Positions 30,912 through 44,157 of a stretch of 64,000 bases of DNA are shown here, piece by piece; within the stretch, counting starts at the first letter, position 1; the number at the start of each line of letters is the position of its first letter. The notes beneath the pieces were generated by a model. It saw only the letters and a program-made list of their open reading frames with translations, was not told the DNA's origin and made no database searches. Position numbers and translations under genes: made by a program. Origin of the DNA: a virus (Duplodnaviria > Heunggongvirae > Uroviricota > Caudoviricetes); the IMG/VR virus record IMGVR_UViG_3300043449_002776, one strand, 5' to 3'.

Positions 30912-30927
30912 CGTTGATACACATAAC

Positions 30928-31000
30928 GGCCCATTCGTCTAATGGTTTAGGACAACAGACTTTCGATCTGTAAATAGGGGTTCGATTCCCCTATGGGTCA
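30928..31000 (+). tRNA. tRNA-Glu (TTC)
   Basis: Acceptor GGCCCAT/ATGGGTC, anticodon stem ACAGA/TCTGT loop CTTTCGA. Confidence 0.8.
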
Positions 31001-31064
31001 CTTGATAGTTGCTGATTATAAGGCAGCTAAGATCTTTGACAATTTGGTAGAATTTGCCACAAGT

Positions 31065-31135
31065 GCTCCTGTCGTTCAATGGCAGGATGCCAATCCTTGT
31101 GATTGGCGATCAAGGTTCGATTCCTTGCTGGAGCA
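31065..31135 (+). tRNA. tRNA-Gln (TTG) (unusual C33)
   Basis: Anticodon stem CCAAT/ATTGG loop CCTTGTG; T-arm CAAGG TTCGATT CCTTG. Confidence 0.6.
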
Positions 31136-31145
31136 TTATGTTTAA

Positions 31146-31218
31146 GACTCCTTGGCATGTCTGGGATTGCAGCAAGCTGTTAACTTGCACTAGCTCGGTT
31201 CGATTCCGAGAGGGGTCT
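31146..31218 (+). tRNA. tRNA-Asn (GTT)
   Basis: Anticodon stem GCAAG/CTTGC loop CTGTTAA. Confidence 0.8.
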
Positions 31219-31223
31219 CTTGT

Positions 31224-31296
31224 GGGTACGAGGAGCAAATGGTAGCTCACCAGCTTGTCACGCTGGAGGTTGCGGGTTCGATTCCCGTGGTACTCG
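31224..31296 (+). tRNA. tRNA-Asp (GTC)
   Basis: Anticodon stem CCAGC/GCTGG loop TTGTCAC; T-arm GCGGG TTCGATT CCCGT. Confidence 0.8.
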
Positions 31297-31355
31297 CCTC
31301 ACGCCACTTCTTGCGAAGTGGGCGGCTTGGTCGGAAATCAAGCCGCATGTGTTAT

Positions 31356-31430
31356 CAGGGTGTAGCTCAGCTTGGCTAGAGCGTCTGGTTTGGGACCAGA
31401 AGGCCGCAGGTTCGAATCCTGTCACCCTGA
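31356..31430 (+). tRNA. tRNA-Pro (TGG)
   Basis: Perfect acceptor CAGGGTG/CACCCTG; loop TTTGGGA. Confidence 0.8.
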
Positions 31431-31437
31431 CTAATAC

Positions 31438-31509
31438 GGGCCGTTGATGATAACGGGAGCATATCTGGCTTGCAACCAGAAAGAAGGGGTTCGATTCCCC
31501 TACGGTCCA
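31438..31509 (+). tRNA. tRNA-Ala (TGC)
   Basis: Acceptor GGGCCGT/ACGGTCC; anticodon stem TCTGG/CCAGA loop CTTGCAA; D-arm atypical. Confidence 0.65.
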
Positions 31510-31541
31510 CTGCATAAAGTTCATTTTGAAAGGATTTAATC

Positions 31542-31931
31542 ATGCCAAGAATAAAGTTAATCAAAGTTCATGATGTTAAAACATCTTGTGATTATTGCGA
31601 TCATTATGTCAAAGACATAGTCGTAGATGAAATGTCGCCTTGGCAAGAAGTGACAGAGGAAGAACTTACTTGGCTACGATGCTGGCAAGCTCGTAGGGAG
31701 ATGGCTAAGAAAAATGTAGCGATTGTGATTTTGGAAGAAATTACAAGCGAAGAAACTGTTGATGGCTTCATCAGTGACATCAAAAAATTTGTCAAAGATG
31801 AAGAGATCAAGCAAAAGGAACGTGACAAGAAATATGCAGAAGCCGAAAAGAAAAGGAAGCTTTTGGCTGAGCAAAAGAAAATTGAACGGGCCAAAAAGGT
31901 TCTACAAAAAAGTGGAATTAAAGTTGATTGA
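31542..31931 (+). CDS. hypothetical protein embedded in tRNA array
   Basis: 129-aa ORF, Lys/Glu-rich C-terminus. Confidence 0.5.
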   Translation: MPRIKLIKVHDVKTSCDYCDHYVKDIVVDEMSPWQEVTEEELTWLRCWQARREMAKKNVAIVILEEITSEETVDGFISDIKKFVKDEEIKQKERDKKYAEAEKKRKLLAEQKKIERAKKVLQKSGIKVD

Positions 31932-31935
31932 TCGA

Positions 31936-32006
31936 AGGTGCGTGATGTAACGGTAGCATGGTGATCTCCAAAGTCATTCGTGCGGGTTCAAATCCTGCCG
32001 CACCTG
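31936..32006 (+). tRNA. tRNA-Trp (CCA)
   Basis: Acceptor AGGTGCG/CGCACCT; loop CTCCAAA. Confidence 0.75.
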
Positions 32007-32011
32007 TTTAT

Positions 32012-32082
32012 GCTCGATTGGTGAAATGGTATCGCATCTCGTTTACACCGAGAAGTCGAAAGTTCGATTCTTTCATCGAGTA
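32012..32082 (+). tRNA. tRNA-Val (TAC)
   Basis: Acceptor GCTCGAT/ATCGAGT; anticodon stem TCTCG/CGAGA loop TTTACAC. Confidence 0.75.
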
Positions 32083-32120
32083 CTTGCCGAAATGCTAGAA
32101 GGGATTACATCTTTTCCGCC

Positions 32121-32197
32121 AAACTTGGGAAAGTGGTGTAGTTGATGCACACCGTCTGCATAAGACGGAGGGATGGGTTTGACTCCCATAAACTTGT
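32121..32197 (+). tRNA. tRNA-like element (Met CAT-type anticodon arm) without pairing acceptor stem; flanked by AAACTTG direct repeat; preceded by conserved 22-nt motif
   Basis: D-arm GTGT..GCAC, anticodon stem CCGTC/GACGG loop TGCATAA, T-arm ATGGG TTTGACT CCCAT, but 5' GGGAAAG cannot pair with 3' AAACTTG. Confidence 0.3.
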
Positions 32198-32226
32198 TCT
32201 CTTCGCCTTTTGTTCGGCAAATTATG

Positions 32227-32298
32227 GTGTCCATAGTGTAGTGGCTCGCACGTCTGCTTGTGAGGCAGAAAGTACCGGTTCAATCCCGGTTGGACACC
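32227..32298 (+). tRNA. tRNA-His (GTG) with encoded G-1
   Basis: G-1 plus acceptor GTGTCCA/TGGACAC with C73; loop TTGTGAG. Confidence 0.8.
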
Positions 32299-32375
32299 CT
32301 TGAGAGAATGCTAGTTGGGATTACATCTTTTTGGTAGAAAAACATCTCAACAATTTTTTTGTCTCTCATTTTTAT

Positions 32376-32492
32376 GGTGGCTGTGATGTAATGGGCCTCT
32401 TAAGTCAAAGTGCGTAGCTTTGTCGGTAAGTTGGACGGAAAGCATCAGATACTGTGACTATCTGAGTGTAGGTTCGAATCCTACCAGCCTCC
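32376..32492 (+). tRNA. second tRNA-His (GTG)-like gene interrupted by about 45-nt insertion within the D-loop
   Basis: G-1 + acceptor GTGGCTG / CAGCCTC + C73; D-stem ATG...CAT separated by insertion; anticodon stem AGATA/TATCT loop CTGTGAC; T-arm GTAGG TTCGAAT CCTAC. Confidence 0.4.
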
Positions 32493-32588
32493 CTTTAGGA
32501 ATTTTAGTCTCTAGCAGGAATTGAAATGTGTGCTTTTGTTAATAGTCGCACTCGTATATACAGGAAACTGTAAAGGTGTGAGCATTGA

Positions 32589-33203
32589 ATGATAAACATA
32601 TTTCAACATATTCCCAGAACTGGTGGCACAACCTTAATTTCAATCTTTAAGAACTTCTATTCTGAAGAGGAAGTATTTCTGTATTACGGTTATAGGATGA
32701 CTGATCTTTACTATTTGCCCACAAATCCTAAAATGATTTATGGACATCTTCCTTTTGGGATTCATAAAATTCTTGATGATGATTTTTTGTATATTGCCAT
32801 GTTGCGAAATCCTATCGAACGAGTTCAATCACTCTACAGATTTGTGCTTGCAAGAGAAGGTGAAATTAAATTTGATGGTTTTTTACGGTCTTATGACCAA
32901 AATGATGTGGTGAAAGCTTTTGTCTATAAGCCACATACAAAGCAACCTTCAGATTGGTTGGATGAAGCTAAAGAAAACATTGCAAAACATTACTTATTAG
33001 GATTTACAGAGAATTACGATGCTTTTTTGGAAGAACTGTCTTTGAAATTTGGGTGGCCTTCAATTCCTTATGAGCAAAAAAATGCAAGCGATAAAACTTA
33101 CGTTTTTTCAAAAGAGGAAGTTGATGCGATCATTGATAGCAATCATTTGGACATGCAGTTATACAGTTGGGCAAGACAAAAATTCTTGAATAAGAATTTG
33201 TAA
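32589..33203 (+). CDS. carbohydrate sulfotransferase-like protein
   Basis: 5'-PSB-like IPRTGGTT and 3'-PB-like LRNPIERVQSLY motifs. Confidence 0.55.
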   Translation: MINIFQHIPRTGGTTLISIFKNFYSEEEVFLYYGYRMTDLYYLPTNPKMIYGHLPFGIHKILDDDFLYIAMLRNPIERVQSLYRFVLAREGEIKFDGFLRSYDQNDVVKAFVYKPHTKQPSDWLDEAKENIAKHYLLGFTENYDAFLEELSLKFGWPSIPYEQKNASDKTYVFSKEEVDAIIDSNHLDMQLYSWARQKFLNKNL

Positions 33204-33217
33204 AATACAAGAGTTTT

Positions 33218-33291
33218 CGGGGTGTGGGCTAAAGGTGAGCCGCCTGCTTTGGGAGCAGGACATCGAGTGAGTTCGATTCTCACCACCCCGA
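33218..33291 (+). tRNA. tRNA-Pro (TGG), second copy
   Basis: Acceptor CGGGGTG/CACCCCG, D-stem GGCT/AGCC, anticodon CCTGC TTTGGGA GCAGG. Confidence 0.7.
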
Positions 33292-33295
33292 CTTT

Positions 33296-33379
33296 GCATT
33301 AGATGTGACCGTAATGAGCAATGGTAGCGAGTCCCGTAAGGGTAGGTACATGTGGGTTCGAGTCCCATCATCTAATGCA
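33296..33379 (+). tRNA. tRNA-like gene (84 nt), isotype undetermined; unusual 10-bp terminal helix
   Basis: GCATTAGATG pairs perfectly with CATCTAATGC; T-arm GTGGG TTCGAGT CCCAT; internal CCC GTAA GGG hairpin; no clear anticodon arm by eye. Confidence 0.35.
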
Positions 33380-33402
33380 ACAAAATTTTGGAGAGGTGGA
33401 TC

Positions 33403-33633
33403 ATGAAAGAAAAGAAGAACAAGGCATTTCTTGAATATCAGGGCAGAAGTTTTTCTGTTTGGCAAGATGAAAAAGATTACTGGTGGTACTCTTTGGGAGC
33501 ATTGTCTGATATCAATACTCAAAACAAAGAGTTGCAGACAGCACTGAATATTGCTCATGAGAGCATTCGTGACAGTATGCCTCGAAAGAAATCTAATCAG
33601 CCACCAAAGAATTCAAAAAATTGGCCGAGGTAA
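33403..33633 (+). CDS. hypothetical protein
   Basis: GGAGAGGTGG RBS before ATG 33403. Confidence 0.4.
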   Translation: MKEKKNKAFLEYQGRSFSVWQDEKDYWWYSLGALSDINTQNKELQTALNIAHESIRDSMPRKKSNQPPKNSKNWPR

Positions 33634-33637
33634 TTAT

Positions 33638-33709
33638 TGCCCTGTAGTGTAGTTGGTAGCACAAAACACTTTGGATGTTTTAGTTTAGGTTCGAACCCTA
33701 ACAGGGTAG
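33638..33709 (+). tRNA. tRNA-Gln (TTG), second copy
   Basis: Acceptor TGCCCTG/CAGGGTA, D-stem GTGT/GCAC, anticodon AAACA CTTTGGA TGTTT, T-arm TTAGG TTCGAAC CCTAA. Confidence 0.65.
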
Positions 33710-33784
33710 TTTTGTTAATTGCGAGCCGTAGCAGATGGGTTTTGGAAAGCCTTTTTAAATTTGAACCATAGTTTTTGGTCTTAA

Positions 33785-33856
33785 GGTTAGTGTAGGCGGG
33801 TTGCCTGATTGATTCTGATAAGGTCAAGATGTTGAGTTCGAGTCTCAAACTAACCA
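33785..33856 (+). tRNA. tRNA-Ile (GAT)
   Basis: Acceptor GGTTAGT/ACTAACC; anticodon stem TGATT/GGTCA loop CTGATAA; T-arm TTGAG TTCGAGT CTCAA. Confidence 0.65.
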
Positions 33857-33954
33857 TTCTTTTTATGTCTTATTCAAAAGTAAAAAATTGGCGACAAAAT
33901 ACAAAAAACTTTTAGTTGAATCTTTAGGCGGAAAATGCAATAGATAAGGATTAC

Positions 33955-34001
33955 ATCTTTTCATCAAAGAGAGGCCGTGGGTTCGAATCCCACCCCCACA
34001 A
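33955..34001 (+). tRNA. 5'-truncated tRNA-Met(CAT)-type 3' portion (pseudogene or split gene) immediately after conserved motif
   Basis: ATCTT TTCATCA AAGAG + V + GTGGG TTCGAAT CCCAC + CCCCACA; no matching 5' acceptor strand within 100 nt upstream. Confidence 0.3.
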
Positions 34002-34058
34002 CTCAGTAAATTTGATATAGTGTTCGAATTCCAGTAAGATAAGTTGAGGAGCAAAGAC

Positions 34059-34430
34059 ATGCCTTTTTACTCAGAGAAACGTGTAAAGTTGCCGCCCGAT
34101 TTTAAAGTCGGCTCCAAAATTTATATTATTGGCGAGGGCTCTGAAGTTTTTGTTGTGCAAAGAATTGTTCGAAACTCTAAAGGAAATGTTGTAAGTGTTG
34201 AACATGATGGCGGCTTTAGAGAGCCCCTAAGTAAACTTTGCTTGATTCGATCAGAGCAAGGTTTTGAAAGTATGTTTGATAAAAATAATTTTATTCAAAC
34301 AGAAATTGGCGAGTGTGATATTTGTAAAGTTGTCTTTCCTGACAGTTGCGAATATTTTGCTGACAAACCTAACAGCATGATTTGTAAGTCTTGCTACAAG
34401 GGTAAAAGTGGTGTGAAAATTTTGATTTGA
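34059..34430 (+). CDS. hypothetical protein with C-terminal Cys-rich zinc-ribbon-like motif
   Basis: GAGGAG RBS before ATG 34059; CDICK...CKSCYKGK. Confidence 0.5.
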   Translation: MPFYSEKRVKLPPDFKVGSKIYIIGEGSEVFVVQRIVRNSKGNVVSVEHDGGFREPLSKLCLIRSEQGFESMFDKNNFIQTEIGECDICKVVFPDSCEYFADKPNSMICKSCYKGKSGVKILI

Positions 34431-34436
34431 CTTTAT

Positions 34437-34541
34437 GCGGAAGATGCTCATGGGAGCTTTTCTCTTTCACTTTTTGTTTCTTAAGCACTTAAGAAAATGC
34501 AGATTGGGATTACATCGTTGGTTCGATTCCAATCTTCCGCT
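34437..34541 (+). tRNA. tRNA-like gene with about 60-nt insertion containing the conserved motif in place of the anticodon arm
   Basis: Acceptor GCGGAAG ... CTTCCGC pair perfectly; D-stem GCTC/GAGC; T-arm GTTGG TTCGATT CCAAT directly follows GGGATTACATC. Confidence 0.35.
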
Positions 34542-34658
34542 CTATGGTAAGCCTTATTCCAATTGAGGGTCAAAGTTCTAGTTGCCTAATCAGCAATGAT
34601 GATGAATAAGTAGCTCAATGAGATGACTCAAGGCCAGCGGGTGATTCCGCTGAATTTT

Positions 34659-34738
34659 GCTAGTGTGGCTCAGTGGCGACAGCACCGCTCTTGTAAAGCG
34701 GAATACAAACACCGTGGGTTCGAGTCCCACCACTAGCT
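34659..34738 (+). tRNA. tRNA-Thr (TGT), 80 nt with extended variable region
   Basis: Perfect acceptor GCTAGTG/CACTAGC; anticodon CCGCT CTTGTAA AGCGG; 12-nt variable region. Confidence 0.65.
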
Positions 34739-34745
34739 CTTTTAT

Positions 34746-34818
34746 GGCGGCATAGCATAGTGGCTAATGCGTTTGTTTCATAAGCAAAAGATCGTCGGTT
34801 CGAGTCCGACTGCCGCTA
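34746..34818 (+). tRNA. tRNA-Met/Ile2 (CAT), second CAT tRNA
   Basis: Acceptor GGCGGCA/TGCCGCT, D-stem GCAT/ATGC, anticodon TTTGT TTCATAA GCAAA. Confidence 0.7.
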
Positions 34819-34825
34819 CTTACTT

Positions 34826-34897
34826 GTCCTCTCCTGCGGATCTCAGGCTCTGTCTCTACGAAAGACGGTTGCAGAAGTTCGACTCTTCTAGGGGGCA
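34826..34897 (+). tRNA. tRNA-Arg (ACG)
   Basis: Acceptor GTCCTCT/AGGGGGC (with G-U), anticodon TGTCT CTACGAA AGACG, T-arm AGAAG TTCGACT CTTCT. Confidence 0.65.
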
Positions 34898-34904
34898 CTT
34901 TTAA

Positions 34905-34975
34905 GCAGGTGTCGTATAATGGTATTACCCCAGTTTTCCAAACTGGCGAAGAGGGTTCGATTCCCTCTACCTGCT
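34905..34975 (+). tRNA. tRNA-Gly (TCC)
   Basis: Acceptor GCAGGTG/TACCTGC; anticodon CCAGT TTTCCAA ACTGG. Confidence 0.75.
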
Positions 34976-34976
34976 C

Positions 34977-35107
34977 TTCGACGTAGCTCAGTGGTAGAGC
35001 ACCTAAAAATAGTCTTTTCACTACTTGTCTGCGAATTAGCAGAATGATAGAAAGGATTACATCGCATTCGGAGCGGGTGGTCGTTGGTTCGAATCCAACC
35101 GTCGATA
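34977..35107 (+). tRNA. tRNA-Arg (TCG) interrupted by a conserved 59-nt insertion between position 26 and the anticodon stem
   Basis: 5' part TTCGACG TA GCTC AGTGGTA GAGC A; insertion 35002-35060 ending in GAATGATAGAAAGGATTAC; 3' part ATCGC ATTCGGA GCGGG + V + GTTGG TTCGAAT CCAAC + CGTCGAT; removing insertion gives a 72-nt cloverleaf. Confidence 0.45.
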
Positions 35108-35153
35108 TTACAGTTTTGTCAGAAGCGGGTTCTGTTTAAAAACCCATTGAACA

Positions 35154-35283
35154 CTCGGCGTAGCTTAATGGCTAAAGCACTAAAAATAGTCTTTTCAATC
35201 TTTGTCTGCGAATTTGCAGAATGTCAGAAAGGATTACATCACCTGTTAAGTGAGGGATGTTGGTTCGAATCCAGCCGCCGAGG
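35154..35283 (+). tRNA. tRNA-Asn (GTT) interrupted by the same conserved 58-nt insertion at position 26/27
   Basis: Perfect 7-bp acceptor CTCGGCG/CGCCGAG; insertion 35180-35237 about 90% identical to that in 34977-35107; anticodon arm ATCAC CTGTTAA GTGAG follows motif. Confidence 0.45.
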
Positions 35284-35461
35284 CATAATTCAACGGGATT
35301 ACATCTCGGTATGAACGAGAACTCCTTCACAGGTCGTAGGGGAGTTTTGAGTCGCCATTGACACGACGACGGTGGATATGGTTGTGCCTGTTTATGGCAT
35401 ACTCAAAAGTAGGTGCAAGCGTAGGCATACGTTCTAATCCTGCTAGTTTCGTTGAATTTAT

Positions 35462-35548
35462 TCTAGGGTAGCCGAGTTGGTAGCAGGCACCTGACTGTTA
35501 ATCAGGAGTGGTTTATCCCCGTCGCAAGTTCGAGTCTTGCCCCTAGAG
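35462..35548 (+). tRNA. tRNA with GTT anticodon and unusually long (17-nt) variable region
   Basis: Acceptor TCTAGGG/CCCTAGA, class-II-like D-arm GCC...GGC, anticodon CCTGA CTGTTAA TCAGG, T-arm GCAAG TTCGAGT CTTGC. Confidence 0.45.
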
Positions 35549-35583
35549 CTAAATTTTGATTATTCATATCATTACATATTGGT

Positions 35584-36138
35584 ATGATTGAAGTCGTTCT
35601 TGCAAGATACAAAGAAGATATAAGTTGGGCAAAAAACCTTTCTGGTTGCAAATTGACTATTTACAACAAATTTGAAGGTCAGAACTTACTCCCTAATGTT
35701 GGTTATGAAGCTCACACTTATTTGCACCACATTGTTACAAATTATGATGATCTTGCAGAGATCACAGTTTTTTCACAAGCAAATCTTCATCCACATATTT
35801 CTGTTCCGTTTTTTCAATCTCAAATTCTGAAACTTGACAGTTTACATTTCAAACCATTTACTGGTTTGCTTTTTTGTCTTAAAGATGGGTCTCCACGTCA
35901 TATTGGCTTAAAAATCGAACAATTTTGGAACTGCCTTTTTGGAACGCCTTGTCCAGATTTTTTTAATTTTCATCCTAATGGGATTTTTTCTGTTCCTGCT
36001 GAAATTATTAGGAAGCATCCATTGACTTTGTATCAAAGAGCATTGGATATGACCAAAACTAAAGAAGATGCCTGCATCATGGAACGTCTGTGGAAGAATT
36101 TGTTCACGACACGACAAAGATGCATAAAAATCTTGTGA
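35584..36138 (+). CDS. hypothetical protein
   Basis: 184-aa ORF. Confidence 0.5.
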   Translation: MIEVVLARYKEDISWAKNLSGCKLTIYNKFEGQNLLPNVGYEAHTYLHHIVTNYDDLAEITVFSQANLHPHISVPFFQSQILKLDSLHFKPFTGLLFCLKDGSPRHIGLKIEQFWNCLFGTPCPDFFNFHPNGIFSVPAEIIRKHPLTLYQRALDMTKTKEDACIMERLWKNLFTTRQRCIKIL

Positions 36139-36207
36139 CAGGCATACTAGACTTTGGTTTTTATTTGCCTAAGATTTTGGAAATCAAATTTGGGCAAGGA
36201 GAGCTAG

Positions 36208-36819
36208 ATGAAAAACGCAAGATGGACTGAACAAGAAATCGAAAACTTGAAAAACGGCATTTTGCCTACTAACCGAACTCAAACCTCAATTATGGTTATG
36301 AAAAGAAGGTTGGGTTTAGTTTCCTTCAAGAAGCCTGTATGGACTTCTGAACACAAAGTGCAACTCAAGCAACTTTTGTCTGAGGGAAAGACAACTAAGC
36401 AGATTTCTGAGATTTTGCCTTACACGCAGAGAAGCATTCAAAAAGAGATTGTGAGGCAAAAGATTCCTCACAATAATATCGTTCGTTTTACCGAGCTTGA
36501 AAAGATTTTCTTTTGCAAGTTTCTGTCTGAAAATTTTGCCCAAAAAACAACACGGGAACTTGTTGATTTGTGGAACAGAGACAATAAACGTAAGGTTAAT
36601 GAGAAAAAGGTTGTTATTTATCTCAAGAAGTTGAATCTTAAAATCTCAAAGGCAGAAGTCATAAAGATGACTTGGTTGCGAAAAAGAGAGCAGGAATGGC
36701 TTCAGGAAAAAGATTTAGATTCAATACGGGCACGGAGAGTTCAAATTATGTCTGAGAGATATAAGAAGCAATTAGATCTCTGGACTGCTCTTCCTAGCCA
36801 TGAAATTGTTGTAGAATAA
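36208..36819 (+). CDS. hypothetical protein (basic, helix-rich)
   Basis: 203-aa ORF. Confidence 0.5.
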   Translation: MKNARWTEQEIENLKNGILPTNRTQTSIMVMKRRLGLVSFKKPVWTSEHKVQLKQLLSEGKTTKQISEILPYTQRSIQKEIVRQKIPHNNIVRFTELEKIFFCKFLSENFAQKTTRELVDLWNRDNKRKVNEKKVVIYLKKLNLKISKAEVIKMTWLRKREQEWLQEKDLDSIRARRVQIMSERYKKQLDLWTALPSHEIVVE

Positions 36820-36878
36820 AAAACGGTTGGTATTCGAAAATACCAACCGCTCCAAGTTGACGATTGTTTCAGCTTTAA

Positions 36879-37103
36879 TTAGCTAATGAATGGATAATCG
36901 GCAGGCGAAGTGACGATAACATCATCAAATGTTTGACCGTCCTTAACAATGCCAACCATCTTACGGTCGGAACCGTCTACAATCATAATTCCAAAGTACT
37001 CTCTTTGGAGTGAATTGCCGCTTGCGTCCTTAACAGTATCGAGTGAACCTTCTGAAGCGAGGTTAACCAATGCTGGTGACAGATCTACAGTAAAAGTAGC
37101 CAT
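36879..37103 (-). CDS. hypothetical small protein
   Basis: 74-aa ORF. Confidence 0.4.
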   Translation of the reverse strand: MATFTVDLSPALVNLASEGSLDTVKDASGNSLQREYFGIMIVDGSDRKMVGIVKDGQTFDDVIVTSPADYPFIS

Positions 37104-37213
37104 AATTGTCTCTCCTTTGCAAAGAATAGATGAATCAATTGATTCTTAATTATTTACACTTGCTAGGAAAATAATCACATTGAATGGTGTCTTATTAGAC
37201 ATAAAAAACTAAT

Positions 37214-37311
37214 AGGGATATGATGTAGTGGTAGCATTCTGAAAAGGGAGCACGGCATAAGCCGCAGTACCAATCGCTTGCAGAGCCTCAGTTCGATTCT
37301 GAGTATCCCTT
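37214..37311 (+). tRNA. tRNA-like gene with about 24-nt extra sequence between D-arm and T-arm (isotype undetermined)
   Basis: Perfect acceptor AGGGATA/TATCCCT; D-arm ATG TAGTGGTAG CAT; T-arm CTCAG TTCGATT CTGAG. Confidence 0.35.
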
Positions 37312-37314
37312 TCT

Positions 37315-37385
37315 TACCCGATGGTGTAACGGTAGCACAAGGGATTTTGGTTCCCTTTGTCTAGGTTCGAATCCTAGTCGGGTAG
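37315..37385 (+). tRNA. tRNA-Gln (TTG)-type, third TTG tRNA
   Basis: Acceptor TACCCGA/TCGGGTA; anticodon AGGGA TTTTGGT TCCCT; T-arm CTAGG TTCGAAT CCTAG. Confidence 0.6.
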
Positions 37386-37670
37386 TAAAATCTTTGAGTC
37401 TGTTAGGCAGATTCATTTTATGAGTTCGTGGCAGACTGGGAAATGCACCTGTCTCTTAAACAGGACTATGCGAGATCGTACCTCGCCGGACTCACTTTCT
37501 TAAGTTTTCCTTTTCAGAGCCTAGTATCTCTTGAAAGTAAGGCTATAATTCTTGGACAATATTTTTGTCGGGTTGGACTTTTTCATGGAGGTTTGAGATG
37601 TGGTGTCTTGAAACAATCGTCGCTTTGAATCAAAAAGTCTGTGAATTTTCTAAGGAAGGCAAATCCTTAA

Positions 37671-38030
37671 GTGCCGCTTATCGAGCGGTCGGCATACAAA
37701 TCGGTGACCGACAAATCTCCAGAAGTGGATCAACTAAAAAATCAGAAGAGAAAGATCAAACTCTTAAAAGAGCAAATTAACATGGATGATTCTGAATTGT
37801 TACAAGCCAATGGATTTGAAGCGGCCTTGCTCGGAGTTGGCAGAAAGAAAGGCTCACAAAATTCGCTGGTCTACGACTACGATAAGTGTATTGAAATCTT
37901 GGTCCAAGGTGGAATGACTGAGGATGAAGCGGTAGAATACATGGAGTTCAATGTTGTTGACGCCTATGTCGGGCCTGCAACACCAATTTTTGTTCATACA
38001 GATAAAATTGATTTGGAAAACTTTGTGTAG
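37671..38030 (+). CDS. hypothetical protein
   Basis: 119-aa ORF. Confidence 0.45.
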   Translation: MPLIERSAYKSVTDKSPEVDQLKNQKRKIKLLKEQINMDDSELLQANGFEAALLGVGRKKGSQNSLVYDYDKCIEILVQGGMTEDEAVEYMEFNVVDAYVGPATPIFVHTDKIDLENFV

Positions 38031-38058
38031 ACATTAGATTGGAATTGCTGTAAATTAT

Positions 38059-38143
38059 GACGGTGTGGCCGAGTGGCTGAAGGCAACAGATTGCAAATCT
38101 GTCGAGTAAATACTCCTCGTGGGTTCGAATCCCACTGCCGTCT
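38059..38143 (+). tRNA. class-II (long variable arm, Ser/Tyr-like body) tRNA with anticodon GCA (Cys by anticodon)
   Basis: Acceptor GACGGTG/TGCCGTC; D-arm GCC GAGTGGCTGAA GGC; anticodon ACAGA TTGCAAA TCTGT; 16-nt variable hairpin CGAG...CTCG; T-arm GTGGG TTCGAAT CCCAC. Confidence 0.5.
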
Positions 38144-38149
38144 TTAAAT

Positions 38150-38223
38150 GCTCCTATAGCTCAACTGGATAGAGCAACAGCCTTCTAAGCTGTAGGTTGC
38201 AGGTTCGAGTCCTGCTGGGAGTA
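38150..38223 (+). tRNA. tRNA-Arg (TCT)
   Basis: Acceptor GCTCCTA/TGGGAGT; D GCTC AACTGGATA GAGC; anticodon ACAGC CTTCTAA GCTGT. Confidence 0.8.
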
Positions 38224-38411
38224 CTTATTATTTGGAGCTTCAAGTGCAAAGACTTTGGAGAATTTGGTGTAAGACGATGGGTAGTCGCATAAGCGAATGC
38301 GACACAGAATCTGATATAGCTGCAATTATCAGAACATTTTATTGGATATTGAATGTCGTGACATGCATTGTGATTATTGCAAATTGCATACGACATTGGA
38401 ATGATTAATTT

Positions 38412-38482
38412 ATCCCAACCAGCGGATCTCTGGCGGCAGGTCTTCGAAACCAGCTTGGAAAGTTCGACTCTTTCTTGGGGTA
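38412..38482 (+). tRNA. tRNA-like, anticodon TCG (Arg) with weak D-stem
   Basis: Acceptor ATCCCAA/TTGGGGT; anticodon CAGGT CTTCGAA ACCAG (one mismatch); T-arm GAAAG TTCGACT CTTTC. Confidence 0.35.
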
Positions 38483-38489
38483 CTAATTC

Positions 38490-38560
38490 AGTCCCTTCTT
38501 TCAATGGTAGGATATCACTATGACACGGTGAAGACAAAGGTTCAATTCCTTTAGGGACTA
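38490..38560 (+). tRNA. tRNA-Val (GAC)
   Basis: Perfect acceptor AGTCCCT/AGGGACT; anticodon TCACT ATGACAC GGTGA; T-arm AAAGG TTCAATT CCTTT. Confidence 0.7.
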
Positions 38561-38718
38561 TTTTCACAAGTAAAATGTGTATATAAGATTGCATTTAAAA
38601 CTTGTGAGAATGCAGACTGGATTACATCTAATTTTATCTTAGTGATTTCCTGCGAAATCAAGTCTTGTCGTTATTTGTCTCACATCTTTTTGCTTTTTGA
38701 ATTGACAAATTTTCGAAT

Positions 38719-39075
38719 CTAAAATGTGTCGGTAAGCTTTACCCATTCTTTGAAACGCCAATACATTGTGCTTGCAGTCGGAGATGATAGCGAGTAGTCG
38801 ATATTACGGCCTTTGTTTTTTACAAATCCAAGAGTTTTGTAAAATTTATCTAACGCCTGTTTGTATCCCTTTTCAGGTTGCGGTCTAAGGACAATTGGCT
38901 TGCCGACCGCTGCTGCATATTTTTGCAATCGCTGAATGATATTTGTGCCGATTCCCATACCTCTTTGCTCTTTGGGCACTTTGATATTCATCAGTTCAAT
39001 TTTTTCTTTGCTTTCGTAAGCATCAATATCAACTGATGGAAATTCGACTCTCAATTGGTTCAGAAGTTTTTCCAT
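38719..39075 (-). CDS. GNAT-family N-acetyltransferase
   Basis: Acetyl-CoA binding motif QRGMGIGTNIIQRL. Confidence 0.65.
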   Translation of the reverse strand: MEKLLNQLRVEFPSVDIDAYESKEKIELMNIKVPKEQRGMGIGTNIIQRLQKYAAAVGKPIVLRPQPEKGYKQALDKFYKTLGFVKNKGRNIDYSLSSPTASTMYWRFKEWVKLTDTF

Positions 39076-39126
39076 GTAGTATATACGTTAACTTGTCAAA
39101 TGATTTTTCTTGCTTAAAGAAAGGAT

Positions 39127-39381
39127 TTGTCCTATAATTTTGCAGTTCAAATAAGGAGTTTCGCTTTGAACAGACTGCAAAAAACAAGACACGAATTGGC
39201 TCAGCATGGCATCGAATGCACAATTGATGAGACAAAAGACTTGATTCACATAGCTTCTCAATTAAGGGAGCTTGCAAAAATTCCTGATGACGAATTCAAA
39301 AACATGATTGATTTTGGAGACTTTAGACAGGAGTCGTTGTATAATGCCGTGTTGAAAGTAAAATATGGGCAAACTGCATGA
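39127..39381 (+). CDS. hypothetical protein
   Basis: 84-aa ORF. Confidence 0.4.
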   Translation: MSYNFAVQIRSFALNRLQKTRHELAQHGIECTIDETKDLIHIASQLRELAKIPDDEFKNMIDFGDFRQESLYNAVLKVKYGQTA

Positions 39382-39427
39382 TGCAAGGTCTAGGCTTACG
39401 CCTAGCTATGCAGCAGTCATCTAAGTA

Positions 39428-39727
39428 ATGAGAGATGACTGGCCCATTTTTTTGTTACCTTTAAAAGGAGTTTGTTCAGTGGTCAACGCAGTTCCAATCA
39501 TTGGATGGTTTTTGTCCATCCTTGTCAGTACCTCTTTGTCGGTGCCTTTTTGGTTTTTTTGGACAGTATGTGGAATTGGGGAAAAGTATTTCTACTTTTT
39601 GCCACCGGTTTGGAAATCAATTCCATTTTTTGAATGCATAGGGCTTTTTATTGCTGTATCAATCATTCAAGCTGTATTTGTTCCAAAGTTAGTGACGGTC
39701 AGTCAAACCACAAAATCTGAGAGCTAA
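39428..39727 (+). CDS. small membrane protein
   Basis: 99 aa, multiple hydrophobic helices. Confidence 0.4.
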   Translation: MRDDWPIFLLPLKGVCSVVNAVPIIGWFLSILVSTSLSVPFWFFWTVCGIGEKYFYFLPPVWKSIPFFECIGLFIAVSIIQAVFVPKLVTVSQTTKSES

Positions 39728-39742
39728 CATCAAGTGTAAAAA

Positions 39743-39768
39743 GGCCCGAAAAGTTCGGGCCTTTTTTG
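39743..39768 (+). terminator. rho-independent terminator
   Basis: GGCCCGAA AAGT TCGGGCC TTTTTT. Confidence 0.75.
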
Positions 39769-39790
39769 TTAATATATCCGAGCAATTCTT

Positions 39791-40369
39791 ATGACTACAT
39801 CTTTAGATTTTCGCAAAGACAATCGATCAACCGAAGTTTTTCAACAGAATATTGCAGAGTTCACACAACGAGAGCAGATTTATGCAGAGGCTTTACGTCT
39901 GGATATGCAAAGCAGGCTCAAAAAAGAAATCAAAATAAGGAATAACGGTGTAGACAACAGTGGCGGTTTGATTGAGGGAAATTTACATAATCACAATGTT
40001 GATATGTGTTTTGATATAGATGGCAAAGACTGGTATTTTGAAATCAAAACCGCACCCGAATACTGTGATTCTTTTTATACTTTCAAGGTTTATTCTTTGC
40101 AGCAGACTTTGTTGCAGAATGCGAAACTTGTTTTACCTAAGCTTGGCTTTTATTATATTTTTAGTAAGCCAGCCATTCAGTGGATGTTGAATTTAAAACA
40201 TTCAATCTATCCAAGGTTTTCGCCAAACGATATGGCGGTCAGAATCATGGCAAGCCAAGTGAATGATTTATACAATTCTAAGATGCTTATTTTTAGAGAA
40301 TGGAGTCCACTAGCAAAAAAATTAGTGAATCAGCATAAAGATTTCTTGCTTCAAGAAAAATCAATTTAA
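39791..40369 (+). CDS. hypothetical protein
   Basis: 192-aa ORF. Confidence 0.5.
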   Translation: MTTSLDFRKDNRSTEVFQQNIAEFTQREQIYAEALRLDMQSRLKKEIKIRNNGVDNSGGLIEGNLHNHNVDMCFDIDGKDWYFEIKTAPEYCDSFYTFKVYSLQQTLLQNAKLVLPKLGFYYIFSKPAIQWMLNLKHSIYPRFSPNDMAVRIMASQVNDLYNSKMLIFREWSPLAKKLVNQHKDFLLQEKSI

Positions 40370-40608
40370 GATTCCTTAGTGCCTCTTGCTTTGTGTGGAT
40401 GCTTGTCAGTGTAGCGGATGATTCCGTTTTTACCGGGAATATTATTTACTCCATACATCATGTCGATATAGGTTATCAAATCTGCCGAAATAGGGGTGCC
40501 GTACAAAGGCGGATATTGGCCTAACGCATCAGAGATTGCTGGATAAAGACCGAGTTTGGCACCGGTTCGTGAAGCATTTTCATTTTGTAGCCATAACTTG
40601 AATTTCAT
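40366..40608 (-). CDS. hypothetical protein
   Basis: 80-aa ORF overlapping stops with neighbours (operon-like). Confidence 0.4.
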   Translation of the reverse strand: MKFKLWLQNENASRTGAKLGLYPAISDALGQYPPLYGTPISADLITYIDMMYGVNNIPGKNGIIRYTDKHPHKARGTKES

Positions 40609-41591
40609 TTAAGCCAGTCTCCGAGTTGCTTTAACTCATCTGGTGTCAATTTTATAGCTGGTGTGGGTGATTCTTTTTTGGACTTGAACCTATCATACAA
40701 ATCCTTAAAATTTGGATATCCATTTTCTAATTCCCTATATCTTGCATTAATATAATCCCCGTGTCGAAGCCCTGTTCGGGTGTCTACCGGATAACTACGT
40801 TCGCCAGTTTCAGGATTGATGTAAGGAAGCACTGGAGTTGGAGATCGCCATCTTTGCATAGAACTTCTGGCTTCTGCATCTTTAATCCACTGTGGTGTCA
40901 TTTGATTAACTTTATCCGAAATTGCCTCACCTGCATCATTGGCTTTTTCAGAAGCAAATTCAATTGTTTTATCAGCGGCATCTTGAGCCAATTCTAAAGC
41001 TTTGCCTCCTGCCGACAGTCCACTATCGACAGCTTTTTTAGCCATCCACATACCCAGCCAAGGGAAAAATCCAATCAATTTCATAAAAGCTTGTTGTCCA
41101 AAAGCACTCACTTTCTCTGTCATTTTGTCCATAAAAGGAACTAAAAAAGGAAACATAGATCTGACTGCGTCAAATTGAAAACCAACAAATATTAAAGAGG
41201 CAACAAATGCTGTAATCCCAAGCACCTTTATCGCCTTGTAAATCATCGAAAGAATGCCACCTTCTTTCTTTACATTTTTCTCAACCACTTCATTTTCTTT
41301 TTCTTCTTCTTTAGATTTTGCGGTCAGTTTGCTCACAAAAAAAGATGTTGCAAAACGCATGGCAATTGATTTTGCAATGTTTGCCGCCATAGGTATTAAA
41401 AAGGCAAATTCTTGGATCAGAATTTGGTGTTCATCGGCAAGAGCTTCTTGCTCCTTAATATTCATCATGTTATACAAGTTGTCCAATACTTGAAATTGCA
41501 GAATTTCAAGTTCATTTTGGCTTAATTGACATTCGTTCAAAAACGATAAATGCTGTCTGTAGGAGGAATATTCCGAAAAACTTTTATACAT
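40605..41591 (-). CDS. hypothetical membrane-associated protein
   Basis: 328 aa; central hydrophobic segment. Confidence 0.5.
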   Translation of the reverse strand: MYKSFSEYSSYRQHLSFLNECQLSQNELEILQFQVLDNLYNMMNIKEQEALADEHQILIQEFAFLIPMAANIAKSIAMRFATSFFVSKLTAKSKEEEKENEVVEKNVKKEGGILSMIYKAIKVLGITAFVASLIFVGFQFDAVRSMFPFLVPFMDKMTEKVSAFGQQAFMKLIGFFPWLGMWMAKKAVDSGLSAGGKALELAQDAADKTIEFASEKANDAGEAISDKVNQMTPQWIKDAEARSSMQRWRSPTPVLPYINPETGERSYPVDTRTGLRHGDYINARYRELENGYPNFKDLYDRFKSKKESPTPAIKLTPDELKQLGDWLK

Positions 41592-41630
41592 GTTTGCCTC
41601 AGAGATTTATTAAGTATTTAGTCTAGTTTT

Positions 41631-42293
41631 TCATAATTTGAAGAATTGCATAAGCTTTTTAGCTAACCAATTTCCTGTGTCGCAATCACTTTGGAAATGG
41701 AAACCAGCTTTGACTCTATTGTCGCCTATTTCTTTGCCGAGTTTTCTCAATTGAGATCTATGTTTAGGGTACAGCCTTGATAACCAAGCACCCATAAATG
41801 TTCCGATAACTGCGTGTGTGGATGGATATGAAGGGGAATCCGTAGTTTTGCCTTTTGGACCAGCATCTTTACCTTGAGCCTTTAGTATTTGAAATGGTCT
41901 TGGACGATCAAATTTAATTTTGAAACTCAAACTTATAGTTGAAAGTTCTTCTGAAACCTTGACAATTTTTTCTTTGAGAGATTTGTCTAATGTTTCTCCT
42001 TGTTGTTCCAAGAGTTCAATGAAACACGTTTCGAGATCTTCTCTGTCTTGTTCTTCAATTCTTTTTAGAACTTCAGAGCTATTGGTATTTCTGAACTTAA
42101 GTATTTGTTTCAATTCTTGCTGTGTTTCTTGACTGTCATTTTTTGGCGGTTCAGGTAATGAAATTGTTTTCCAATTTGAGTCGAAATCGGGGGTGTCTTT
42201 GCCTACAAGATAAGCATCTTGTTTAGGACGACCATATTTCAGTTTTTCTAGATTTTCCTCTTGTAGGAAAAGCCATTTCTTGAAATTGCCCAC
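41631..42293 (-). CDS. PAP2-family (acid phosphatase/phosphatidic-acid-phosphatase-like) protein
   Basis: Motifs K-x6-RP (KIKFDRPRP), PSYPSTHA (PSGH-like) and FHFQSD (H...D). Confidence 0.5.
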   Translation of the reverse strand: MGNFKKWLFLQEENLEKLKYGRPKQDAYLVGKDTPDFDSNWKTISLPEPPKNDSQETQQELKQILKFRNTNSSEVLKRIEEQDREDLETCFIELLEQQGETLDKSLKEKIVKVSEELSTISLSFKIKFDRPRPFQILKAQGKDAGPKGKTTDSPSYPSTHAVIGTFMGAWLSRLYPKHRSQLRKLGKEIGDNRVKAGFHFQSDCDTGNWLAKKLMQFFKL

Positions 42294-42332
42294 AAAAATA
42301 ATCTCCTATTTGTAAATAATACGTGTGTATTT

Positions 42333-42989
42333 ATGAAAATATTAGAAACAATTTTACCACGTAAAATTAAGTCGCCTTTATTTCGTCTAGGCAACCCACA
42401 TGATGGTGGTTATGTAGTTGATGTTGAGGCTTTGCATCGAGTTGATTCTTTATATACTTATGGGGTAGGGGGCAATACAACATTTGAACTAGATTTTTAT
42501 GAAAAAACTAAAAAGCCCGTTTATATGTTTGACCATACTGTAAATGACCCTAAAATCGAAAATTTAAATTTTCGAAAAGAAGGATTAGCAGCTTTTTGCA
42601 ATAAAAACTTTAATAATTTCATAAGTTGCAATTTACATCATCATGTGTTGCTAAAAATTGATGTTGAAGGAGCAGAAGTCGATTGGATAAAAGCTATGGA
42701 TTTTAGCAAAATAGCAGTTGATACAATGATAATTGAATTCCACAACCTTCTTTCTGATTTGCCTTTAATTGAAAAAATAAAAGAACATTATAATATCATT
42801 TGGATACATCCAAATAATTCAGGAGGGATGACAGCAGGGTTTCCCAATGTTTTAGAAGTAACCTTTGTGGCAAAAAAATTAGATATTTTTGAAGGTTGGG
42901 CGAGATGTAAATACCCTTTAAAGATTGATAGTCCTAATATTCCAAACAAACCAGATTATATTTTAGACTTTCGCCCTATTTATCTTTAG
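42333..42989 (+). CDS. FkbM-family methyltransferase
   Basis: GNPHDGGYVVD and LKIDVEGAE...IEFH motifs typical of Methyltransf_21/FkbM. Confidence 0.65.
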   Translation: MKILETILPRKIKSPLFRLGNPHDGGYVVDVEALHRVDSLYTYGVGGNTTFELDFYEKTKKPVYMFDHTVNDPKIENLNFRKEGLAAFCNKNFNNFISCNLHHHVLLKIDVEGAEVDWIKAMDFSKIAVDTMIIEFHNLLSDLPLIEKIKEHYNIIWIHPNNSGGMTAGFPNVLEVTFVAKKLDIFEGWARCKYPLKIDSPNIPNKPDYILDFRPIYL

Positions 42990-43078
42990 GTCATTGAAAG
43001 AAAAATTTTTGCTATTATAAGCTATTTCGATTCAGTTGGCAGAGCCTTTATGGCATCACTATTGTTCTGTAGTTTTTA

Positions 43079-43150
43079 GCTACCTTAGCTCAGTGGTAGA
43101 GCACTTCATTGGTAATGAAGAGGTCATGGGTTCAAGCCCCATAGGTAGCT
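43079..43150 (+). tRNA. tRNA-Thr (GGT)
   Basis: Perfect acceptor GCTACCT/AGGTAGC; D GCTC AGTGGTA GAGC; anticodon CTTCA TTGGTAA TGAAG. Confidence 0.8.
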
Positions 43151-43202
43151 CTGTGATATTATAAACACTTGACTTATTTATGCACCTTCCTTAAGATTGT
43201 GA

Positions 43203-43272
43203 ACTGCTTTAGCTCAATGGAAGAGCCTGCCATTGTAGGGCGGAGACGTGGGTTCGATTCCTACAGGCAGAC
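43203..43272 (+). tRNA. tRNA-Thr (TGT)-type, second TGT tRNA
   Basis: Acceptor ACTGCTT/AGGCAGA (1-72 mismatch); anticodon CTGCC ATTGTAG GGCGG; T-arm GTGGG TTCGATT CCTAC. Confidence 0.55.
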
Positions 43273-43439
43273 CCTTACTTTGTGACAAATCATGACTCAT
43301 TTGCTAGCATGTGCCTGTGGAGGAACAATTGAGATACTTGCTGTATTTGCAGCATGTATGATATCCTCTATTATTGTTGCCTTAGAATGGCTTGGAGTTG
43401 GCTTTAAAAAGCATCACAAAACCAAGGAGGGTTGGTCTG

Positions 43440-43694
43440 ATGAATCCGCAGAGGGATGACGCAGATGATGTTCAGTGTGCAGTGCGAAAGTATAACATTG
43501 ATCCCAAGTGTGAGTTTTGTGCTTCTACACAGGGGCTAAAACTGGAAAGCTCACGCACAGCCTACCCTTGGGAAGGTGAGTTCGATTCTCCAGATGATCC
43601 TAATCGTGAAAAGCTTTTGTGCAGACATTGTGCAAAAGAACATCATGAATATTGGGATGACATGTGGAAGGATTACTACAGTAGTCGATTTTGA
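43440..43694 (+). CDS. hypothetical Cys-rich (zinc-ribbon-like) protein
   Basis: AGGAGG RBS before ATG 43440; CEFC...CRHC. Confidence 0.45.
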   Translation: MNPQRDDADDVQCAVRKYNIDPKCEFCASTQGLKLESSRTAYPWEGEFDSPDDPNREKLLCRHCAKEHHEYWDDMWKDYYSSRF

Positions 43695-43945
43695 AATGGA
43701 GCTTTAACATGGAAGTTTTTCAAGGACATAAAACGATTTACACAGACCGTGGCGAACTTTTTACTCCTGAGTATGTCTCATACTTGGAGAGACAAATTGT
43801 TATTTTAAGCAACAAGTTGGTTACTTCGCAGTCTCAAGTTCGACTACTAACAAGTCAAAATGATAAACGATTTGATAACATAAAAAGGTCTTATGATTTT
43901 GAAGAGGATCATATAGGCTATCCCGATGATGATCATGATCGATGA
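43691..43945 (+). CDS. hypothetical protein
   Basis: 84-aa ORF, overlapping stop/start. Confidence 0.4.
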   Translation: MKWSFNMEVFQGHKTIYTDRGELFTPEYVSYLERQIVILSNKLVTSQSQVRLLTSQNDKRFDNIKRSYDFEEDHIGYPDDDHDR

Positions 43946-43951
43946 TTTTTT

Positions 43952-44040
43952 GGGAGTGAAGCTCATGGTAGAGCGTGGCGGCTTATAACCGTTAGGATCA
44001 GATGAATCTCAAGGTTAGGGTTCGAATCCCTACACTCCTA
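43952..44040 (+). tRNA. tRNA with anticodon TAT (Ile AUA-reading) and 22-nt variable region
   Basis: Acceptor GGGAGTG/CACTCCT; D GCTC ATGGTA GAGC; anticodon GGCGG CTTATAA CCGTT (two G-U); T-arm TAGGG TTCGAAT CCCTA. Confidence 0.45.
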
Positions 44041-44086
44041 CTTTTTTTGAAAAAGCGGGAATTAAAGCACTATAATAGTGTTGATT

Positions 44087-44157
44087 GCGGCCATGATGTA
44101 GTGGTAGCCTACTTGCTTGCCATGCAAGATGTGCGAGTTCGATTCTCGCTGGCCGCT
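44087..44157 (+). tRNA. tRNA-Gly (GCC)
   Basis: Perfect acceptor GCGGCCA/TGGCCGC; anticodon CTTGC TTGCCAT GCAAG; T-arm GCGAG TTCGATT CTCGC. Confidence 0.8.

Follow-up and report, generated by a model that had tools for sequence, protein, structure and literature searches.

Bacterial tRNAs with long variable arms are, according to the textbooks, tRNALeu, tRNASer, tRNATyr and tRNASec only. A stretch of 64,000 nucleotides of DNA from a virus of the Caudoviricetes (IMG/VR record IMGVR_UViG_3300043449_002776), referred to here as the window, carries a tRNA gene that joins a class-II body to a Cys (GCA) anticodon, and in the same array tRNA genes with Ile (TAT), Asn (GTT) and Thr (TGT) anticodons have enlarged variable (V) regions as well (Table 1). 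Which amino acids would such tRNAs carry, and does the additional sequence stay in the mature RNA? A sequence-only reading of the window had offered two answers, namely that these are missense or decoding-altering tRNAs, or that they are examples of small insertions in the V region. The reading that we prefer, and to which we give roughly three chances in four, is that the long-V tRNAs are genuine elongators, charged according to their anticodons, and that the expansion of the variable region remains in the mature molecule.

Table 1. Positions of the tRNA array, of its long-V tRNA genes and of their diagnostic elements in the window
Feature	Position	Strand	Description
tRNA array	30567..44157	+	about 30 tRNA genes among small ORFs; ARAGORN and Rfam
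tRNA-Thr(TGT)	34659..34739	+	U73, G1:C72, C2:G71; 12-nt V region at 34702-34713; Rfam 60.2 bits; ARAGORN
tRNA-Asn(GTT)	35462..35549	+	G73; 17-nt V region at 35507-35523; Rfam 57.4 bits; ARAGORN
tRNA-Cys(GCA) with class-II-type variable arm	38059..38143	+	85 nt; ARAGORN; Rfam RF00005, 55.7 bits (threshold 29)
Anticodon GCA of the Cys tRNA	38093..38095	+	canonical 7-nt loop TTGCAAA
Variable arm of the Cys tRNA	38103..38118	+	16 nt: C, 4-bp stem GAGT/ACTC, loop AAAT, then CTC
tRNA-Ile(TAT)	43952..44041	+	anticodon at 43984-43986; A73; 22-nt V region; ARAGORN; Rfam 47.9 bits
V-arm hairpin of the Ile tRNA	43995..44009	+	stem GGAT/ATCT, 7-nt loop CAGATGA (43999-44005)

The tRNA array of a large phage

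Of the 27 tRNA genes that ARAGORN calls in the window, 26 belong to the array. Rfam adds an insertion-bearing tRNA at 35154-35283 and a tRNA-Val at 38490-38560 (+; loop ATGACAC, anticodon GAC; 52.6 bits), for which ARAGORN makes no call. The array holds three Gln(TTG) and two Pro(TGG) genes, exactly as had been counted from the sequence. The accompanying statement that Leu, Ser, Tyr and class-I Cys tRNAs are missing also held: none of these, and no tRNAPhe, was found between positions 30000 and 45000 even at an Rfam E-value below 0.5. Nearly all of the other examined loci that contain 18 tRNAs or more do have tRNAs for Ser, Leu and Tyr, unlike the window array.

A megablast search of INPHARED (50,697 phage records) returned no close DNA relatives of the window, only generic matches to tRNA-Arg. 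The window has proteins in common, at 48-53% identity, with two IMG/VR contigs, L015 (527 kb) and L043 (120 kb), which indicates that it is a fragment of a large uncultured phage. Its ORFs include an NAD-dependent ligase, a Ro60/TROVE protein, a sigma factor, a GMP reductase and one ORF of 2015 aa; a Pfam search of 30 window ORFs yielded the first four together with an amidoligase, a JAB domain, a PAP2 domain and a sulfotransferase. Among these 30 ORFs, Pfam found no aminoacyl-tRNA synthetase, CCA-adding enzyme, or repair or tRNA-processing enzyme within or adjoining the array.

A Cys(GCA) tRNA gene with a class-II-type variable arm

The GCA anticodon and 16-nt variable hairpin that the sequence-only reading had assigned to 38059-38143 are supported by ARAGORN, by Rfam and by the unconstrained minimum-free-energy (MFE) fold, which gives the same cloverleaf including the V hairpin. 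The acceptor stem (GACGGTG/TGCCGTC) and T arm (GTGGG-TTCGAAT-CCCAC) have a 7/5 arrangement, and both stems are fully paired and covarying. Three unpaired 3' bases (CTC) close the variable arm, the last of them being C48. The discriminator is T at 38143 (U73), and no CCA is encoded. The D arm, GCC-GAGTGGCTGAA-GGC, has a 3-bp D stem. It had been called Ser/Tyr-type, which is accurate as a description of the sequence but not of its specificity, in that 76 ordinary-length phage tRNACys have the same GCCGAGNGGNNNAAGGC D arm. The nearest orthologues, those of L015 and L043, are 93% identical to the window tRNA in the core, and their differences from it include compensatory substitutions in the stems of the acceptor, anticodon and V arms.

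Set against the known classes, the gene has the GCA in a canonical loop and the U73 of tRNACys, and it has the class II architecture, with a variable region of more than 10 nt folded as a stem-loop. With its 4-bp V stem, three unpaired bases and U73 it falls outside tRNASer. It also falls outside bacterial tRNATyr (A73, U35), having U73 and C35, although the V-arm geometry and D arm match those of tRNATyr; and its 7-bp acceptor and 5-bp T stem separate it from the 8/4 or 9/3 selC* tRNAs and allo-tRNAs. The best reading is that 38059-38143 would encode a genuine tRNACys whose extra arm is structured and is retained.

Relatives in viral contigs, bacterial arrays and cultured phages

We scanned IMG/VR with a single D-arm pattern, GCCGAGNGGNNNAAGGC-N6-YTGCAR. 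The scan yielded 105 loci, of which 104 were called tRNA-Cys(GCA) by ARAGORN and one received no tRNA call. Most of the matches are ordinary tRNACys of 74-75 nt; in 28 the V region is 12-22 nt long. The same pattern, restricted to the long spacing, was then applied in a bacterial scan to one genome for each of 185,579 species and gave 90 matches. About 70 of these are crenarchaeal intron-containing tRNACys, which we set aside as irrelevant, and about 20 are bacterial long-V tRNACys, making the type a rare one. Almost all of the bacterial genes lie within arrays of 20-33 tRNA genes, for example in Piscinibacter caeni MQ-18 and Paucibacter soli AS307. The IMG/VR loci, the bacterial array loci and the window together contain 44 copies with a V region of 12-20 nt. 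Beyond the window there are 30 distinct long-V tRNACys, found in viral contigs, in bacterial tRNA arrays and, separately from these, in cultured T4-like Enterobacter phages. Members of Karamvirus, cultured T4-like phages of Enterobacter, Klebsiella and Cronobacter (PG7, for example), have an 82-nt tRNACys with a 13-nt V hairpin that is annotated as plain tRNA-Cys.

In an alignment of 30 distinct long-V sequences (A1) every helix covaries, and all four V-stem pairs vary on both sides. The V stem is paired in 97% of cells, compared with 28-43% in slid controls, and its covariation score was reached by none of 500 shuffles. C48 is invariant; G15 is there as well, though the search pattern required it. 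The resulting pair is G15:C48, as against G15:G48 in E. coli. Identity over the body averages 0.68 to class-I tRNACys, 0.64 to tRNASer and 0.61 to tRNATyr, with overlapping ranges and with a bias in that the Cys sets were chosen by their D arm; the body could derive from a class-I tRNACys that gained a hairpin or from a recruited tRNATyr or tRNASer.

Amino acid identity of the long-V tRNAs

Might the long arm instead recruit SerRS, TyrRS or LeuRS, so that Ser, Tyr or Leu would be inserted at Cys codons and, likewise, at codons read by the Ile, Asn and Thr anticodons? The arm is of the class-II type, the D arm is identical to that of tRNASer and tRNATyr of other loci, and the window is without Ser, Leu and Tyr tRNAs. 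SerRS ignores the anticodon, and allo-tRNAs with U73 are predicted to accept Ser; in allo-tRNAs, U73 together with a long V arm can still suggest recognition by SerRS (PMC5389517). Class-II UAU tRNAs of nematodes are charged with Leu (PMC3333845). The discriminators, however, argue against such a missense role: U73 is present in 42 of the 44 long-V tRNACys copies and in 76 of 76 short ones, whereas tRNASer of the same loci (n=93) mostly has G73 (66/93) and the Tyr and Leu tRNAs have A73. GCA is the anticodon in 31/31 distinct long-V relatives. The V arm of these tRNAs consists of one unpaired base, 3-4 bp, a 4-nt loop and three unpaired bases, a geometry found also in tRNATyr and tRNALeu of the same loci, while the tRNASer there have a V stem of 5-7 bp and one unpaired base.

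The genomic setting points the same way. In arrays with 20 isotypes (L171, L008 and L119), the long-V form is the sole Cys tRNA and stands beside normal Ser, Leu and Tyr tRNAs, a coexistence that comes from related loci and not from this phage; long and short Cys forms occur together in none of the loci examined. The long-V tRNACys is also found in cultured lytic T4-like Enterobacter phages. In the window itself, the NAD-ligase keeps the conserved Cys4 zinc finger (C419, C422, C440 and C445), with the cysteines encoded by UGY, and Cys accounts for 1.55% of codons, a normal share. The Asn, Ile and Thr genes retain the features of their own isotypes that are given in Table 1 (the discriminator and, for Thr, the first two acceptor pairs as well). 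With U73 and GCA present, with a V arm that is not that of tRNASer, with the long form as sole Cys tRNA in full arrays and with the other isotypes keeping their own discriminators, the missense proposal of the sequence-only reading is not borne out, and we consider it very unlikely.

GCA tRNAs of Ser type look different. In one of them, from a Verrucomicrobiae MAG (L170, 5165-5257), the V stem has 7 bp, the discriminator is G73 and the anticodon loop is 8 nt long, CTGCAAAG; another in a Terracidiphilus MAG (L151, 5345-5432) likewise has a 7-bp V stem and is without U73. Both are Ser-type or allo-like and, unlike the window Cys tRNA, are candidates for real recoding of Cys codons or of quadruplets.

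For the window tRNACys as a genuine elongator, we propose the following course. The tRNA would be transcribed together with the array and processed by host enzymes, which would presumably also add the CCA, since none is encoded. Host CysRS would charge it through U73 and GCA, aided by the G15:C48 Levitt pair, and the charged tRNA would read UGU and UGC. The 4-bp V hairpin is predicted to point outward on the side of the core that bears the variable region. In complexes with class I synthetases, among them CysRS and IleRS, this side stays open to solvent, and the Cys arm would therefore be tolerated, which explains its tolerance and not its selection. SerRS looks for a longer arm, with a single unpaired base, and for G73 by preference; TyrRS uses A73 and U35, and LeuRS uses A73. 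The shortness of the stem, the three unpaired nucleotides on its 3' side, U73 and C35 would keep these other synthetases off. The arm may have been kept as a means of escape from host tRNA-directed nucleases or factors, or because it stabilises the core. As to the enzyme, U73 and GCA are the major determinants of CysRS, and CysRS of the E. coli type is sensitive to the G15:G48 core (PMC9976931), which is a point against this course, the long-V tRNACys having G15:C48.

An Ile(TAT) family with a GAU loop in the variable arm

ARAGORN agrees with the 22-nt variable region that had been noted in the TAT tRNA (43952-44041). Behind the V hairpin there are 6 nt, CAAGGT, and the MFE fold of this tRNA is not a clean cloverleaf. 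The TAT anticodon had also been described as rare, which applies to bacteria but not to phage tRNA arrays.

The loci fetched with the Cys pattern provide a first sample that is unbiased for Ile. Of its 25 distinct tRNA(TAT), 19 have a V region of 20-27 nt, and in 18 of these 19 the V hairpin has a 7-nt loop, Y-A-G-A-T-N-R. A dedicated scan of IMG/VR gave at least 104 tRNA-Ile(TAT) matches, at least 100 of them distinct, and when the samples were pooled the hairpin was present in 117 of 118 distinct sequences among the matches listed. The three pairs closing the loop are paired in 99-100% of the 118, each with several pair types, compared with 14-72% in shifted registers; in a MAFFT alignment of 37 diverse members (A2), all four hairpin pairs vary on both sides. 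A control scan in which the A was replaced by C, G or T gave at least 28 further distinct members. All of those listed have GAT at loop positions 3-5, and 17 of the 28 listed have CTGAT, including the exact CTGATAA, which is the canonical anticodon loop of tRNAIle(GAU). Because GAT is kept when the A is replaced, the conserved core of the V loop, which is 7 nt long, is Y-N-G-A-U. The bases at positions 6 and 7 are variable, and at position 2 the ratio of A to other bases is roughly 3:1, an estimate only, among the matches listed. The family thus defined has at least 146 distinct long-V phage tRNA(TAT), and a Y-N-G-A-U-N-N loop closed by at least 3 bp is present in 145 of the 146 listed.

The third base pair from the V loop corresponds to C29:G41, which Nureki et al. 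reportedly identified in 1994 as a determinant of E. coli IleRS. C:G occupies this place in 10 of 21 distinct V-hairpin stems (48%) and in 26 of 54 anticodon stems of phage tRNAIle(GAT) (48%), as against 10% of 1255 other tRNAs and 25% of true TAT arms. The V-hairpin stems show no sign of recent duplication when set beside the anticodon stems of tRNAIle(GAT) from the same loci, the similarity being confined to the loop and the C:G pair.

By blastn against INPHARED the window Ile tRNA has no match; other family members do, and cultured phages with the family include Sinorhizobium phage Phosso, Lactobacillus phage LpeD and Synechococcus phages. Other phages have a tRNA(TAT) of class-I length. 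Separately, an unusual wobble, G1-U72, is conserved as the first acceptor pair in 20 of the 37 diverse members in A2 and is seen in the window at 43952/44039.

A possible mimic of an isoleucine anticodon arm

The window Ile tRNA has A73 and A35-U36, with U at position 34 and a GAU triplet in the loop of the V arm. At position 34, G or lysidine is acceptable to IleRS, and a phage cannot change the IleRS of its host. E. coli IleRS prefers LAU over UAU by 360-fold (PMC3575796), and synthetases bind anticodon-like hairpins outside tRNAs, for instance in the thrS operator (PMC9976931). These two observations lead us to a tentative hypothesis, one that we regard as possible rather than probable: the V arm of the Ile tRNA (Table 1) may be a built-in mimic of the tRNAIle(GAU) anticodon stem-loop, through which host IleRS would isoleucylate the tRNA despite its UAU anticodon. 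The arm would present G-A-U, and often a C29:G41-type pair, to the host enzyme, so that identity and decoding elements would be split between two hairpins, and it may work by alternative stacking of either hairpin under the D stem. The variation at loop positions 6 and 7 and the class-I-length tRNA(TAT) of other phages set limits to this hypothesis. The tRNA would decode AUA. By extension, the accessory V arms of phage tRNAs, that of the tRNACys included, may be functional add-ons that work with, or escape from, host factors that the phage has no means of changing.

Variable regions of Asn, Thr and other isotypes

The 17-nt and 12-nt variable regions that had been noted in the GTT and TGT tRNAs were likewise recovered by ARAGORN. 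The Asn V region is weakly structured, and the array has three Asn(GTT) genes; elsewhere we found three long-V Asn tRNAs, which have no motif in common. The Thr V region is unpaired, and a second Thr(TGT) gene lies at 43203-43274; in L067 the orthologous gene shares the D arm and, in the V region, has a hairpin, GGA-GCAA-TCC. Pairing in the V region of the Asn and Thr long-V genes is weak or absent, and normal paralogues are present in the same array; the two may be relaxed or decaying variants.

No conserved V loop was found in the other long-V isotypes (Cys, Lys, Thr, Asn and others), the loops being mostly GNRA-like tetraloops. V hairpins of 3-4 bp with a tetraloop are seen occasionally in Lys, His, Arg, Val, Trp, Phe, Pro and Glu tRNAs (L015, L043, L171, L184, L150, L102 and L070). 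The presence of V hairpins on so many isotypes points to a general tendency, in phage and mobile tRNA arrays, towards the acquisition of variable arms.

Retention of the arms and use of the tRNAs in translation

The V sequences might instead be absent from the mature tRNA, having been cut out as intervening sequences or as mobile mini-insertions. The array offers a parallel of a kind: an Arg gene (~34971-35100, +; loop ATTCGGA, TCG anticodon) and an Asn gene (35154-35283, +; loop CTGTTAA, GTT anticodon, G73) have homologous, structured insertions of ~52 nt at position 26/27, where the D arm meets the anticodon arm. The inserted sequence forms a long hairpin, with z = -4.4 in the Asn gene, and an IMG/VR pattern scan for it gave one chance match, outside any tRNA. 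There is also an Rfam match to a group I intron at 49981-50162 (+), at 50.6 bits against a gathering threshold of 50. The V hairpins, however, at 12-22 nt, are far below the size of self-splicing introns and lie away from the known bacterial intron site in the anticodon loop. In position and geometry they are as in ordinary class-II arms, they show compensatory changes in very divergent tRNAs, and their sequences are not common to tRNAs of different isotype. Removal from the mature tRNA therefore seems to us extremely improbable. The idea of small V insertions retains its value in the evolutionary sense; but the Cys and Ile insertions, being base-paired hairpins kept by compensatory changes, are most likely part of the mature RNA and not removed.

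A further possibility is that the tRNAs take no part in translation, serving as decoys or sponges for tRNA-targeting nucleases or tRNA-binding factors, or decaying as pseudogenes. Phage and mobile tRNA arrays have been discussed as anti-defence devices (PMC10264068, PMC11555353, PMC12803027). The weak or absent V pairing and the normal paralogues of the Thr and Asn genes would fit such a role, as would the irregular MFE fold of the Ile tRNA. Against it, covariation extends to every helix in both the Cys (30 distinct) and Ile(TAT) (at least 146 distinct) families, in both of which the anticodon loop, T loop and discriminator keep a canonical, conserved form. Each of the two is the sole gene with its anticodon in the array, and the codons concerned are well used in the window, both UGY and AUA (25% of Ile codons). 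We consider a non-translating role unlikely, and hold to the reading that the long-V tRNAs are probably elongators.

Other features of the window and of related loci

A Ro60/TROVE ORF with a vWA domain lies at 13103-14689 (+). Two weak tRNA-like elements are found near it at 19738-19812 and 19890-19983 (+), with 30.7 and 34.3 bits, in one of which ARAGORN reads a 4-base anticodon, AGGT. Inside the tRNA array, at 32296-32373 (+), there is a match below threshold to YrlB (Y RNA-like). The ORF, the tRNA-like elements and the YrlB match may form a phage Ro60/Y RNA module.

Among loci L001-L195, the phage and mobile arrays contain 115 distinct tRNAs with a Leu anticodon, and 52 of these combine A73 with a short variable region (<10 nt, mostly 5-6 nt). 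These class-I-shaped tRNALeu, for example at L008 6424-6497 and L119 4956-5030, are the converse of the Cys case. Ten distinct tRNA-Ser have the anticodon ACT, with an unmodified-type A34 (for example L002 6467-6555 and L008 2012-2095), which is unusual for bacteria.

Comparison with known systems

The closest parallel to the window tRNACys is the selC* tRNACys described by Mukai et al. 2017 (PMC5389517), which also combines a long variable arm with U73 and a GCA (or UCA) anticodon. It is charged with cysteine by CysRS and so sets a precedent for a long V arm with Cys identity. The two differ in build and setting: selC* is a tRNASec mimic, 8/4 in arrangement, with an anticodon stem that is long, and it occurs in anaerobic bacteria, linked to selB*/cysS* genes, whereas the window tRNA, a member of a phage tRNA array, is 7/5 and combines the 3-bp D stem of the Ser/Tyr/Cys type with a V arm that is short and Tyr-like. 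With the canonical class II tRNAs (Leu, Ser and Tyr) it has in common the 3-bp D stem, the GAGYGG...AA loop and a stem-loop variable arm, the geometry of which is identical in tRNATyr and tRNALeu. It departs from them in having GCA and U73, which mark it as Cys, and its V stem is too short, and its count of unpaired bases wrong, for tRNASer.

Allo-tRNAs (PMC5389517) and the nev-tRNAs of nematodes (PMC3333845) resemble the phage tRNAs in joining a long arm to an anticodon of a class-I isotype, and UAU is favoured in both. Unlike the phage tRNAs as we read them, they retain the identity of Ser or Leu tRNAs, and they mistranslate or else have no part in translation. Allo-tRNAs are 8/4 or 9/3; the phage Ile(UAU) tRNA is 7/5 and has A73 and, instead of a generic Ser/Leu arm, a loop of the GAU anticodon type. 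The tRNAIle2(UAU) of Mycoplasma mobile and of lactic acid bacteria similarly reads AUA with an unmodified-type UAU and not with lysidine-CAU, but in those organisms it is the IleRS that is adapted (Arg865 in M. mobile), while in the phage family it would be the tRNA itself, with its added GAU hairpin (PMC3575796). The thrS operator and the yeast AspRS mRNA, like the Ile arm, place a cognate anticodon-loop hairpin outside the normal anticodon position of a tRNA (PMC9976931). Those mimics are regulatory elements of mRNAs that are recognised by synthetases; the Ile arm lies inside a decoding tRNA, and its recognition is proposed from sequence. Neither a 7/5 class-II tRNACys nor a variable arm with a GAU loop is described in the open-access papers that we searched, though such absence is not proof, and several GenBank records annotate genes of these kinds as plain tRNA-Cys or tRNA-Ile.

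The Cys and Ile(TAT) types are two recurrent exceptions to the textbook rule, under selection in phage and mobile arrays. Both occur in cultured, easily tested phages, the Cys type in PG7 and the Ile type in Phosso, LpeD and Synechococcus phages. For annotation they carry a warning, in that a class-II body with a class-I anticodon in a phage need not mean mistranslation. If the Ile arm is indeed a mimic recognised by IleRS, it would represent a natural separation of tRNA identity from decoding, of use in engineering orthogonal or recoding tRNAs, and it would explain how phages can supply the decoding of AUA without TilS.
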